Source of the DNA: a virus
Lineage: Duplodnaviria; Heunggongvirae; Uroviricota; Caudoviricetes
IMG/VR virus record: IMGVR_UViG_3300045988_007046
Span: 1 to 51,479 of that record
DNA length: 51,479 bases
Reading direction: 5' to 3' (one strand)
The notes under the pieces were generated by a model. The model made no database searches, had not been told where the DNA came from, and saw only the letters and a program-made list of their open reading frames with translations. The position numbers and the translations under genes are program-made. This document shows positions 46,440 through 48,300 of this stretch, piece by piece; the stretch's first letter is position 1, and the number at the start of each line of letters is the position of its first letter.

Positions 46440-46883
46440 ACAGACTTTATAGCTTATTTGGCAGATTTTTTATAAGGCTACTGCCATCCTTCCATACCAC
46501 ACCTCACCCAACCATACCATGCCTTACCAGACCGCACCTTGCCTCATTAAAAGACCCTCTTAAAAGACCTTTTAAAAAGGTAAGTCTCATTTTAATGTAG
46601 CTGAGACTAACTACCCGCACCGAACCTCACCTGACCTAACCGCGCCATACCTAACCGCGCCTTACCACACCTCACTTAAAAACCCTATGAGATACTCTAT
46701 CGAATATAATTTAAAGACTCTTAAGTGATGTAATCGAATTTTTATGTAGCTCCGATTAACTACCCGCACTTTACCAAACCTCACCCTACCCTACCAGACC
46801 TTACCTAACCGCGCCGTACCTCATTAAAAGACCCTCTTAAAGACCTTTTAAAAAGGAGCCTCCGAAGAGGCTACCTAGTCAAC
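46440..46883. repeat. repeat-rich intergenic region: C/A-rich 10-bp-periodic tracts plus a conserved ~70-bp module
   Basis: Strongly G-poor tracts on the plus strand with ~10-bp periodic CC-rich units (46485-46545, 46618-46678, 46766-46822); module TAAAAGACCCTCTTAAAAGACCTTTTAAAAAGGTAAGTCTCATTTTAATGTAGCTGAGACTAACTACCCGCAC at 46546-46618, reused in part at 46706-46770 and 46824-46856. Confidence 0.65.
46846..46872 (-). terminator. rho-independent terminator-like hairpin (minus strand)
   Basis: On the minus strand, AGCCTC-TTCG-GAGGCT hairpin followed by CTTTTTAAAA, just downstream of the 46884-47324 stop. Confidence 0.45.
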
Positions 46884-47324
46884 TTAGAAAGGTTTTCTAC
46901 GTTGCTTGTTAATGTTAGCTTTCATAGCAGCTAAATGGTTTTGCTGTTCAATTAGTCGTGAACGTTCTTGATGGCTAAGTACCATAGTGTTCACATTCTC
47001 AATCGCTTGAGTGGCTTGCTTTAAAGCACGACCAATCTTACCAGACATTTTACGTTTTGCAATAGTTGCTTGATGCTTAGGTTCAACCACACGATAACCA
47101 ACACCCATTGAAGCAACCAGATAAATCTTCTCTTCTTTAAGAAGCTTCTCAATAAACTTCTCAAGTCGATTTAAGCGTGTAAGTGCGTAAGCTTTCATTT
47201 CATCTTCGTACTTAACAATGTCACCTTGATAAGTTGGCTTCACAATACCTAAGAAGGTATCCATCTCAGAGTGTGATACAGTGTCACCGTAACTAAACTT
47301 TGCTGCTAATGCTTTTGTATTCAT
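46884..47324 (-). CDS. hypothetical protein
   Basis: 146-aa ORF with basic C-terminus; flanked by repeat regions. Confidence 0.5.
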   Translation of the reverse strand: MNTKALAAKFSYGDTVSHSEMDTFLGIVKPTYQGDIVKYEDEMKAYALTRLNRLEKFIEKLLKEEKIYLVASMGVGYRVVEPKHQATIAKRKMSGKIGRALKQATQAIENVNTMVLSHQERSRLIEQQNHLAAMKANINKQRRKPF

Positions 47325-47326
47325 AA

Positions 47327-47929
47327 TTAAACGTTACCTTCTGAAATAACTTCTACAGAAAAACGACCAAAGCGTGGACGCCAATCACCTACACCACAAA
47401 GGTTACCAGCATTTTCCAGAACCATCAAGATTTCCTCTCTGGTGATTTGCTCTTCATCGAACATCAAACCGAACTCTACAGACCAGTCACGGAAGATTGG
47501 GCGGTAGCTCATAACTCGTGCTGTACCAATCTTAACAGACTTAGCATAGATAAAGTCTGGATTCTTAGCAAGTTCTTGTGGGTTTGCTGGACAGTTCTTG
47601 ATAGTCATTGGGAAGACTACATCTGTCAGCATAATGGCTCTGTCAATTACCTTACCAAGTTTGTTGAGTTTTGCACCAGACTTGATACAAGCCTCAATCA
47701 TCTCACCGTTCATAACAAAACCTAGCTGCTCATCGTAGTAACAGGAAGTTACTAGTTGGCTTTCTGCTAAGAGCGCATAGTCTTCGTCAGTCTTTTTACG
47801 TTTACTGGACAGAGACTTGTGATATTTTGTCAGAGGGTTTAATGGGTCTGACAACGTATCGTTATGGCTCAAGAAAGGACGAGTACCAGTGATTTTGATA
47901 TTTAACAGTTTCATAGCATTTAGCTCCAC
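47327..47929 (-). CDS. hypothetical protein
   Basis: 200-aa ORF, 2-nt gap to the downstream gene. Confidence 0.5.
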
Positions 47930-47989
47930 ACTTTAGTTGATTGTTAAGTTGTTTGTAAAGAACCCTCAACAGAAGACTCTTTAGAAACT

Positions 47990-48300
47990 TGGTAGATTTT
48001 TAACGTGGCTACTACCATCCACCCACACCGTGCCACACCACACCATACCCAACTCCACCTAACCCTACCACACCTTATTAAAAGACCCTCCTAAAGACCT
48101 TTTAAAAAGGTAAGTCTCATTTTAATGTAGCTGAGACTAACTACCCATACTTCACATCACCGCACCATACTACACCTGACACCACCTTACACCACCTTAC
48201 ACCACCGCACCATACCTGACCAAGCTACACATCACTTAAAAACCCTCTTAAAAGACTCTTAAGTGATGCTGGTGAGTACCCGTTGGTTTATGCTGCTCAG
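47990..48300. repeat. second repeat-rich intergenic region (C/A-rich 10-bp tandem repeats plus the conserved module)
   Basis: Near-identical module at 48071-48146; tandem ACACCACCTT x3 within 48196-48228; G-poor tracts 48021-48075 and 48147-48240. Confidence 0.65.

Follow-up and report, generated by a model that had tools for sequence, protein, structure and literature searches.

What are the long, strand-asymmetric C/A-rich tracts that flank a two-gene island in a phage genome, and why does the same module, with a palindrome and a hairpin, recur on both sides of the genes? The question concerns positions 46440-48300 of a 51,479 nt viral sequence (IMG/VR record IMGVR_UViG_3300045988_007046, analysed over its whole length and referred to as the window), whose source is a Felixounavirus (Felix O1-like phage). 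With high confidence we identify the region as a type II locus of the VIPR (Viral Interference Programmable Repeat) system, in which each C/A-rich tract is a guide-RNA (vrRNA) gene, putatively transcribed. The locus is real and remarkable but already known, since the VIPR system has been described in the near-identical phage SUSP1 in two 2026 preprints (bioRxiv 10.64898/2026.04.26.720920 and 10.64898/2026.04.26.720927). The published description agrees with the locus point by point. What is said below on mechanism comes from the two preprints, which are at the stage before peer review.

Organization of the locus

The locus lies between the DNA ligase gene and a gene for a 127-aa protein, as in SUSP1, and is surrounded by DNA-metabolism genes. 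GenBank records label its ∼ 900 bp of odd intergenic DNA 'repeat_region' at best. All of its elements are on the minus strand, in the order two guide-RNA genes, vipr, vap and three guide-RNA genes:

48106-48221, minus strand: vrRNA U1, 16 GGY/NN units (48221-48142) and a tail with the hairpin GTCTCA-N12-TGAGAC (48137-48114)
47988-48074, minus strand: vrRNA U2, 11 units (48074-48020) and a tail with the hairpin GGTAG-N16-CTACC (48016-47991)
47327-47914, minus strand: vipr, 195-aa Cas7/Csm3-like RAMP protein
46884-47324, minus strand: vap, vap1-type accessory gene, 146 aa, directly following vipr
46727-46820, minus strand: vrRNA D1, 12 units (46820-46761) and a tail with the hairpin AATCGGA-N-TTCGATT
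46576-46671, minus strand: vrRNA D2, 12 units (46671-46612) and a tail with the hairpin GTCTCA-N12-TGAGAC (46607-46584)
46460-46543, minus strand: vrRNA D3, 11 units (46543-46489) and a tail with the hairpin GGCAG-N16-CTGCC (46485-46460)

As the original prediction had stated, both intergenic regions (46368-46883 and 47930-48332) are G-poor and C/A-rich on the plus strand; their GC skew goes down to -0.8. They contain five tracts of 10-16 units each, either side of the two genes, in which the unit reads NNACC or NN(A/G)CC on the plus strand (46489-46543, 46612-46671, 46761-46820, 48020-48074 and 48142-48221) and GGYNN on the minus (coding) strand. The period had been taken as 10 bp and interpreted as helical phasing. 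The basic period in the five tracts is instead 5 bp, the autocorrelation of C peaking at lags of 5, 10, 15 and 20, and there is hence no 10-bp phasing. Likewise, ACACCACCTT does not occur three times at 48196-48228; exact copies start at 48179 and 48189 and an 8/10 copy at 48199.

The units form five in-phase runs of 9-12 units, compared with a longest run of 5 units in 100 dinucleotide-type shuffles of the window and a mean of 3.6 (maximum 9) when only the C-rich intergenic DNA was shuffled, 500 times. The 5-nt GGYNN periodicity far exceeds chance and is restricted to the locus; the rest of the 51-kb window holds no comparable GGYNN tract. Among phages whose Vipr proteins are 97-99% identical, GGY is constant and NN hypervariable, and relatives carry guides at the same positions with differing NN and unit numbers (range 6 to 17).

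The reused ∼ 70-bp module was found where it had been reported, at 46546-46618 and 48071-48146 with diverged copies near 46706-46770 and 46824-46856. The palindrome AGACCTTTTAAAAAGGT is present at 46565 and 48095 (a 16-nt copy at 46841), and GTCTCA-N12-TGAGAC at 46584-46607 and 48114-48137.

Vipr and Vap

Translation of vipr probably begins with the ATG at 47914; its ORF as listed reaches a GTG at 47929. Neither island gene matched anything in Pfam, PADLOC or NCBIfam, and in PHROGs both fall into families of unknown function only. The AF2 model of Vipr (pLDDT 94.5) was compared with the PDB by Foldseek, and essentially all of the 50 matches listed are Csm3/Cas7/Cmr-type backbone subunits, the top matches being Csm3/Cas7 (E 3.6e-5 to 1e-3, TM 0.4-0.54). 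Vipr is modelled as a small RAMP protein in which an RRM core is combined with a glycine-rich loop and a thumb. The C-terminal G-rich loop is nearly invariant across 36 homologues, and a β-hairpin in the model (residues 122-141) bears R138. The Vipr proteins of the window and of SUSP1 differ at 6 of 195 residues (96.9% identity, tblastn, KT454805.2). The RNA (GGY)-contact residues that we checked, as listed in 10.64898/2026.04.26.720927 (H17, E71, M72, R138, C173, D177, W178 and R179), are the same in both proteins. A TRAP-like ring protein acting on 11 GGU repeats was considered and dropped, given the Cas7-like RAMP fold returned by the search and the arrays that abut genes in distant loci.

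Vap is identical to SUSP1 Vap1, a predicted DNA-binding protein of the winged-helix-like type, at 144 of 146 positions. Its AF2 model (pLDDT 69.7, moderate confidence; topology H-E-H-H-E-E) is winged-helix-like in its N-terminal part and ends in two long helices, and the fold search gave weak, non-significant matches to wHTH proteins in the PDB. A Cas11-like small subunit was also considered for this protein and dropped because the model has a β-hairpin wing and a wHTH-like topology. Vap homologues come after vipr in distant loci (L020-L028). Their homology to the window protein is visible in a multiple alignment and profile search only; BLASTP of window Vap against one distant Vap was not significant.

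RNA tails and transcription signals

Every tract ends in a conserved tail with a hairpin and a pseudoknot; the latter pairs GTGG with CCAC in U2 and AAGG with CCTT in D3. In an alignment of 18 distinct tails, which fall into only about four independent tail types, 90.4% of the cells in the hairpin and pseudoknot are paired, versus 39% or less in slid-partner controls, and compensatory changes occur in 9 of the 11 pairs. The pseudoknot helix is 98.6% paired with three of its four pairs changed on both sides, as are six of the seven pairs of the stem. The palindrome and the hairpin that had been proposed to mark protein-binding DNA are parts of these conserved RNA tail and linker structures and of one intrinsic terminator. 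No Rfam family matched the window region or seven distant loci.

The following signals were found in and next to the locus:

48299-48326, minus strand: sigma-70-like promoter TTGACA-16-TATACT, 11/12 consensus, directly after the DNA ligase stop codon
47930-47959, minus strand: weak promoter-like site TTTACA-18-TAAAGT, 9/12 consensus match only, just upstream of vipr
46847-46872, minus strand: intrinsic terminator AGCCTC-TTCG-GAGGCT with T-run, after vap
46412-46440, minus strand: sigma-70-like promoter TTGACA-17-TATTTT, for the next gene (46367-45984)

The promoter behind the ligase gene is the probable start of the upstream guide/vipr transcript and is kept in the island-less relative GEP101. 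An inverted repeat, GGTGAGTA/TACTCACC (48271-48310), overlaps its -10 element and is probably not part of the RNA. The T-run of the terminator is one copy of the palindrome. Since this terminator separates vap from D1-D3, these three downstream guides would need read-through or promoters of their own; a scan of the locus gave no convincing sigma-70 site for them inside the modules. The promoter at 46412-46440 sits within a 13-bp inverted repeat (46413-46459) and borders the locus rather than being part of it.

Predicted guide targets in an E. coli satellite

The guides were compared with a satellite of ∼ 12 kb, linked to yecE or tonB, that resides in the chromosomes of E. coli and whose tape-measure and baseplate genes are related to those of the phage. 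One of its loci, L036, bears WP_096972664.1 and WP_096972663.1, both of which are named in the preprint. We scanned 15 satellite loci (variants) with the published 1-nt skip rule and an NN match threshold of 80%, using 200 unit-order shuffles per guide as control. Four of the five guides match the satellite at 85-95% of their NN positions. D1 matches at 21 of 22 (95%; 22 of 24 when the constant last unit is counted) in the leader region that precedes a ∼ 236-aa gene (L034 8533-8564, L036 8255-8286). D3, with its first eight units perfect, matches at 18 of 20 (90%) in the same leader region of another variant (L033 8415-8443). The site of D2 is in the serine-recombinase gene (19/22, 86%), where the skipped bases coincide with codon position 3 (phase 0). 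The scores of D1, D2 and D3 were each reached by 0 of 200 shuffles. The best skip-1 match of U2 (17/20, 85%) lies at the 3' end of a vrRNA carried by the satellite; its first eight units are perfect and its score was reached by 1 of 200 shuffles, the match relying on these eight units in G/T-rich sequence.

U1 as it stands gives 20/30, which is not significant. It carries a 10-nt (2-unit) duplication, GGTGG-TGTAA, identical to the ACACCACCTT repeat mentioned above, and without this slippage duplication it matches the tape-measure gene of the satellite at 25 of 26 positions in codon phase 0. The duplication puts U1 out of register with its likely target.

With skips of 0, 2 or 3 nt the window guides reach 77% at most, below the scores of D1-D3. 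In 19 relatives, 42 of 55 distinct guides match at least 80% of NN under skip 1, compared with 4, 4 and 7 under the other rules. The 1-nt skip rule is thereby independently reproduced from sequence alone. Self-targets at 85% are absent from the window (best self match 80%). An exact search of IMG/VR for the full-length NNx patterns of D1 and D2 gave no match; the targets lie in E. coli chromosomes and have 1-3 mismatches. The GTCTCA-type tail module, searched by BLAST in E. coli genomes, gave no match either; the satellite-borne guides bear the other tail type.

Since the guide sequences point at this satellite, whose tape-measure and baseplate genes resemble those of the phage by descent, the locus most likely serves the phage as a weapon against a satellite that parasitises it. 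It supports an arms race of Felix O1-like phages with a satellite found in about 9% of complete E. coli genomes.

Proposed mechanism

SUSP1 expresses its guides as RNAs of ∼ 100 nt, which co-purify with Vipr, and the targets of these guides are transcriptionally repressed (10.64898/2026.04.26.720920 and 10.64898/2026.04.26.720927). Vipr holds the GGY motifs, one protomer per 5-nt repeat (10.64898/2026.04.26.720927). The mechanism was demonstrated for this 97%-identical system and is carried over here by orthology; for the present phage we infer ∼ 100-nt guide RNAs, Vipr association and target repression from near-identity only. Vipr protomers would polymerise on the guide RNA, one per pentamer, burying each GGY and presenting the NN dinucleotides. 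These would pair with double-stranded DNA reading NNxNNx..., one base, usually the codon wobble base, being skipped. The resulting triplex R-loop would block transcription without cutting, at satellite sites that are predicted to comprise the leader region, the serine-recombinase gene, the tape-measure gene and the satellite's own vrRNA.

Distribution in related phages

A comparison of related genomes, suggested with the original prediction, found the island in some of them and missing in about half. A vipr gene of at least 90% identity is present in ∼ 118 of ∼ 260 related phage records, and the phages that lack the island are complete genomes without nearly all of the tracts. Between the same flanks, the island-less phage GEP101 has just one guide unit, a hybrid, which is what a deletion between repeated guide modules would be expected to leave. 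The suggestion of a recombination-delimited cassette has support as a secondary property, but the tracts themselves are guide genes. Further afield, vipr homologues with no more than 37-50% identity are also bordered by sense-strand GGYNN arrays, both in phages of unrelated genomic context and in the chromosome of a Rhodococcus. The arrays always keep to the strand that is sense for the gene pair, and at distant loci they abut coding sequences.

Alternative explanations

Iteron and parC layouts resemble short tandem repeats around a small gene pair. The tracts could in that light be arrays of duplex-DNA sites (iteron, partition-site or operator-like) for a protein such as the HTH protein encoded close by at 45478-45807, and in one GenBank record part of this DNA bears the label 'possible binding site of StbAB'. 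We consider this highly improbable. The period is 5 rather than about 10.5, only three of five positions are conserved while the other two differ between near-identical phages, and strict strand asymmetry and co-orientation with the genes fit poorly. Moreover, the co-inherited protein is an RNA-binding RAMP rather than the HTH protein, and the NN information matches satellite genes in codon phase; a plain DNA site explains none of this, and the reading is largely refuted. What stands of the proposed protein-binding arrays is that the tracts are functional, protein-bound and tied to the two-gene island, with RNA instead of DNA as the molecule and Vipr instead of the HTH protein as the partner.

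Nor do we give more than very slight credence to a replication origin or primer-forming region based on R-loops or G-quadruplexes (in the manner of T4 oriF or ColE1). To judge from composition, the G-rich non-template strand (GGTNN)n could give two-tetrad G4s or stable R-loops, and the surrounding DNA-metabolism genes would suit such a role. About half of the related phages, however, are complete genomes without the island and nearly all tracts, the cassette occurs in quite different genome neighbourhoods, and an origin would not be expected to conserve Y at position 3, to have structured tails or to show target matches. This candidate was dropped on the Cas7-like result of the fold search and the distant loci with arrays abutting genes. 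Functionless repeats, left behind for the most part by replication slippage or by recombination at the borders of a mobile two-gene cassette, would agree with the presence or absence of the island among relatives, the hybrid unit of GEP101, the 2-unit duplication in U1 and the spread of unit numbers from 6 to 17. They are nevertheless very unlikely, since GGY is kept across very distant lineages with NN free to vary, the tails show compensatory changes and the NN strings match the satellite far above shuffled controls. Slippage and recombination account for guide change, not for guide existence.

Comparison with known systems

The SUSP1 system shares with this locus the gene pair, the GGY/NN pentamer build, the tail with pseudoknot, the genome position, the E. 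coli satellite family as target and the 1-nt skip rule. It differs in having one guide upstream and three downstream, where this phage has two and three, and in the 2-unit duplication by which U1 loses register here. The NN strings also differ and so, therefore, do the target sites.

Class 1 CRISPR-Cas systems (Cas7/Csm3 on crRNA; types I, III, IV and VII) have the same RAMP fold with RRM core, G-rich loop and thumb hairpin, a protein that polymerises on guide RNA, a variable part capped by a conserved structured handle, and several-guide arrays that adjoin the protein gene. In contrast to the 6-nt period of CRISPR, which has no sequence preference, VIPR has a 5-nt period with sequence-specific GGY anchoring; its guide information is non-contiguous and its carrier is a virulent phage. 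The locus contains no repeat-spacer array, its conserved modules being separated by pentamer-periodic tracts. Scans with Pfam, PADLOC, NCBIfam and PHROGs detected no Cas5, Cas6, Cas10, Cas1-Cas2 or nuclease next to vipr, and Pfam and PHROGs gave no Cas-family match for the neighbouring genes.

TRAP (trp RNA-binding attenuation protein) is likewise an oligomer that reads an RNA triplet about every 5 nt, roughly 11 times, but it is a closed 11-mer ring of unrelated fold that binds 11 (G/U)AG repeats to regulate an attenuator, with no guide information and no DNA targeting. Type IV-B Csf (PMC7937560) resembles VIPR in its minimal RAMP filament with a small helical partner, in lacking a CRISPR array and array-processing or cleavage subunits, and in its location on mobile elements. 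Csf, however, assembles on heterogeneous RNA whereas VIPR has dedicated guides with their own code, and Vap looks winged-helix-like, not Cas11-like.

VIPR is a newly described form of RNA-based DNA recognition with non-contiguous guide information in pentamer repeats, and its reading protein may predate the CRISPR RAMPs. In the window, the VIPR identity accounts for two 'hypothetical' genes and about 900 bp of intergenic DNA and adds five natural guides with predicted targets.

Possible new details

As a whole, the locus raises no question beyond those already in the two preprints. Novelty, which we regard as rather unlikely, would be limited to three details that are absent from the parts of the preprints covered: an orphan or decoy guide in island-less phages, U2 versus the satellite guide gene, and the 2-unit slippage of guides. 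The promoter-driven hybrid guide of phages without vipr-vap might be an orphan using Vipr supplied by co-infecting relatives; it might also be a decoy. The 2-unit slippage changes guides and either inactivates them or is tolerated by the filament, in which the two extra units would be looped out. The apparent target of U2 is the guide gene that the satellite itself carries, which, if true, would amount to guide-against-guide warfare within the SUSP1 clade.

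GGY-NN tracts and the VIPR locus

Read on the minus strand, which is the coding strand for every gene near the locus, the G-poor plus-strand tracts around the two-gene island (vap, 46884-47324; vipr, 47327-47914) are runs of GGY-NN pentamers. A phase-aware scan of the whole 51-kb window gave five such runs, two upstream of vipr (U1, U2) and three downstream of vap (D1-D3), and no comparable run outside them.

GGY-NN runs in the window
46489-46543, minus strand: D3, 11 units
46612-46671, minus strand: D2, 12 units
46761-46820, minus strand: D1, 12 units
48020-48074, minus strand: U2, 11 units
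48142-48221, minus strand: U1, 16 units

In 100 shuffles of the window, runs reached at most 5 units; with the C-rich intergenic DNA alone shuffled, the values were 3.6 on average and 9 at most. The motifs of the original prediction are present in the sequence. Its 10-bp period is in fact a period of 5, as both the pentamer scan and the C autocorrelation (maxima at lags 5, 10, 15 and 20) indicate, and the copies of ACACCACCTT, which it had misplaced, are at 48179 and 48189. A conserved element of ∼ 35 nt and a linker follow each tract, and what had been described as a reused 70-bp module with a palindrome and a GTCTCA hairpin consists of parts of these elements and linkers.

This kind of locus is already described in the literature, and the mechanism is known from preprints. 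As defined in one of them (10.64898/2026.04.26.720920), VIPR (Viral Interference Programmable Repeat) comprises the RAMP protein Vipr, the accessory gene vap and guide RNAs (vrRNAs) built from 9-16 GGY/NN repeats and ending in a structured 3′ tail, whose NN dinucleotides pair with NNx in double-stranded DNA (the 1-nt skip rule), such that transcription of the target is repressed. The cryo-EM companion reports one protomer per repeat, sequestration of GGY by H17, R138, D177, W178, R179, E71, M72 and C173, and formation of a triplex R-loop at the target (10.64898/2026.04.26.720927).

The window Vipr is 96.9% identical to that of SUSP1, the model phage of these preprints (6 of 195 residues differ), with all eight GGY-contact residues unchanged; position 175, which the preprint also names, as T175, is V in both sequences. 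Vap is identical at 144 of 146 positions. On the SUSP1 contig one guide lies upstream and three lie downstream, as published; the window has two and three. The window locus is real and well delimited: a type II VIPR locus, with genes for five guide RNAs, of a kind already known. Beyond the published system our analysis adds only minor details, as side observations.

From this near-identity to SUSP1 we infer expression, processing, RNP formation and repression in the present phage. Between vap and the three downstream guides lies a good intrinsic terminator (46872-46857), and no convincing promoter for these guides was found in the window; the SUSP1 RNAs equivalent to them were nevertheless detected, according to the preprint (10.64898/2026.04.26.720920).

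Two neighbouring features were also noted. A perfect 13-bp inverted repeat (AAATAAGCTATAA/TTATAGCTTATTT, 46413-46459) surrounds the −35 TTGACA of the promoter for gene 46367-45984 and is kept in relatives, island-less ones included; it could represent an operator or an overlap between a terminator and a promoter, and has nothing to do with the guides. An ORF downstream of the ligase region (50582-51145, minus strand) has the look of an HNH/AP2-type homing endonuclease, judged by sequence motifs and the annotation of relatives.

Vipr, Vap and the guide tails

The family of the larger island protein has 519 detectable members, none annotated. Translation probably starts at the ATG at 47914, giving 195 aa. 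In Foldseek, the AlphaFold model of Vipr (pLDDT 94.5) hits Csm3/Cas7 backbone subunits from type III, type VII and Cmr complexes, with E as low as 3.6e-5 and a probability of 1.0; the C-terminal stretch of the protein is a typical, nearly invariant RAMP glycine-rich loop. The 146-aa Vap, recognizable homologues of which follow vipr at distant loci, was modelled with moderate confidence (pLDDT 69.7) as winged-helix-like in topology, with two long helices after it; the fold matches of this model (ScpB, OmpR-type and GntR-type wHTH) were not significant.

Ungapped alignment of 18 distinct tails from the window, relatives and one satellite, representing only about four independent tail types, supports a hairpin (columns 9-15 with 28-34) and a pseudoknot (columns 3-6 with 17-20) that joins the last repeat unit to the hairpin loop. 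These positions are 90% paired, against ≤ 39% with slid partners, and 9 of 11 pairs have changed on both sides (e.g. GTAG/CTAC, AAGG/CCTT, GTGG/CCAC) among these roughly four types.

Conservation, gain and loss

Felix O1-like myoviruses (Felixounavirus) that infect E. coli, Salmonella and Shigella share 90-95% identity with the region. The tracts go unmentioned in the Felix O1 genome paper (PMC3185647), and a few GenBank records label them merely 'repeat_region' or 'possible binding site of StbAB'. We fetched loci encoding relatives of the larger island ORF (200 aa as listed). Phages with a 96-99% identical protein have tracts at matching positions in which GGY is always kept and the NN dinucleotides and unit number (6-17) vary widely. 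At distant loci (37-50% identity) sense-strand GGYNN arrays, often directly abutting coding sequences, flank a vipr homologue and a second gene of ∼ 150 aa; the GGC form is commoner in GC-rich hosts. That orientation places the arrays on the transcribed strand. Since arrays and both genes recur together in unrelated neighbourhoods (beside portal/protease genes, within replication modules, in a Rhodococcus chromosome), they form one co-inherited cassette.

Both states of the island occur between shared flanks: ∼ 118 of ∼ 260 such phage records encode Vipr at ≥ 90% identity, and GEP101 (PQ036202.1, 968-1271) corresponds to window 46368-48332 minus the island, lacking vipr and vap. What GEP101 retains between the ligase gene and the 127-aa gene is a single hybrid guide, made up of a partly degenerate GGY/NN tract and a D3-type tail, together with both the upstream and the downstream promoter. 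By its sequence this orphan guide looks like the remnant of a deletion between guide modules. As it matches the expected product of such a deletion, the suggestion of a recombination-delimited cassette is fair for how the locus is gained and lost, but does not describe what it does.

Several observations concern these relatives. In Rhodococcus globerulus (JBBCXC010000002.1, 5137-5653) five GGC/NN guides downstream of the vap homologue are spaced by a recurring element that combines an acceptor-like stem with a T-arm-like hairpin (GGCGG-TTCGATT-CCGCC). Two of these elements are odd tRNAs according to ARAGORN; Rfam found nothing, and the elements do not stand out in fold energy. They may serve as tRNA-like processing signals; the preprint text available mentions hammerhead-interspersed arrays and not tRNA-like ones. 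Gene callers translate GGC/NN arrays as spurious Gly/Arg/Trp-rich extensions or ORFs (e.g. 'ARPGTARLGQAWPG', 'GRVRWGGVGCV') at vap homologues P0124, P0125, P0134 and P0138 and at locus L022 (3520-3873, 4326-4535), so some database 'proteins' of the vap family contain translated guide RNA. Felixounavirus sequence at 92-96% identity is present in GU169904.1 (Staphylococcus phage SA1, where it includes vipr) and in MG065664.1 (Campylobacter phage A132), probably through contamination or chimeric assembly of these records.

Probable targets in an E. coli satellite

According to the preprint, SUSP1-clade guides converge on a satellite with a phage-like baseplate protein (10.64898/2026.04.26.720920). 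BLAST with the gene that follows the tape-measure gene (window 32843-33640) located it as an island of ∼ 12 kb that encodes a serine recombinase and occurs in 474 of the 5426 complete E. coli genomes (90-93% nucleotide identity); one fetched locus, L036, carries exactly the accessions that the preprint names. The guides were scanned under the skip-1 rule against 15 satellite variants (262 kb).

Guide matches under the skip-1 rule
D1: 21/22 NN, leader region upstream of a ∼ 236-aa gene
D3: 18/20 NN, the same leader region in another variant
D2: 19/22 NN, serine recombinase gene, the skipped bases falling on codon position 3
U2: 17/20 NN (no mismatch in the first 8 units), 3′ end of a vrRNA carried by the satellite

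Skip lengths of 0, 2 and 3 gave at best 17/22 on the same variants, and of 200 shuffles of the unit order, one attained the score of U2 and none those of D1-D3. In a wider control across 19 relatives, 42 of 55 distinct guides matched at ≥ 80% under skip-1, versus 4, 4 and 7 under the other rules. No guide had a self-target at ≥ 85% in the window. Most likely, then, the guides are aimed at a satellite of the phage. Given its eight perfect leading pairs, U2 may target the satellite's own guide gene.

U1 unaltered scores 20/30. Without one copy of the 10-nt unit pair GGTGG-TGTAA, which is the ACACCACCTT repeat on the plus strand (48179-48208), it matches the satellite tape-measure gene at 25/26 in codon phase, and guides of relatives lacking the duplication match at 91%. 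The extra copy thus puts U1 out of register with this target, and is either an inactivating slippage or a match to a satellite variant outside our sample. U1 has one copy more than phages dune and L015; the triplicated form also occurs in the relative L008.

The satellites (L032-L046; e.g. L036, 2066-14360) sit in yecE (DUF72) or beside tonB, ymdF/wrbA or mdtG, and encode a large serine recombinase, tape-measure and baseplate proteins and often HNH, AP2/ERF or Dam-like proteins; the AP2/ERF and HNH genes recall the ORF at 50582-51145. Their baseplate gene shares 90-93% DNA identity with window 32864-33421, suggesting that sequence was recently exchanged with Felix-like phages. The leader region that D1 and D3 match varies strongly (60-100% identity), as expected of an arms race. 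Satellites also carry vrRNA-like units of their own (minus strand; L036 about 3930-3961, L037 3011-3039, and L045), with a tail, GGGTGGATTGTCGTAGCCACGTTAAAAATCGAC, whose stem shows compensatory changes.
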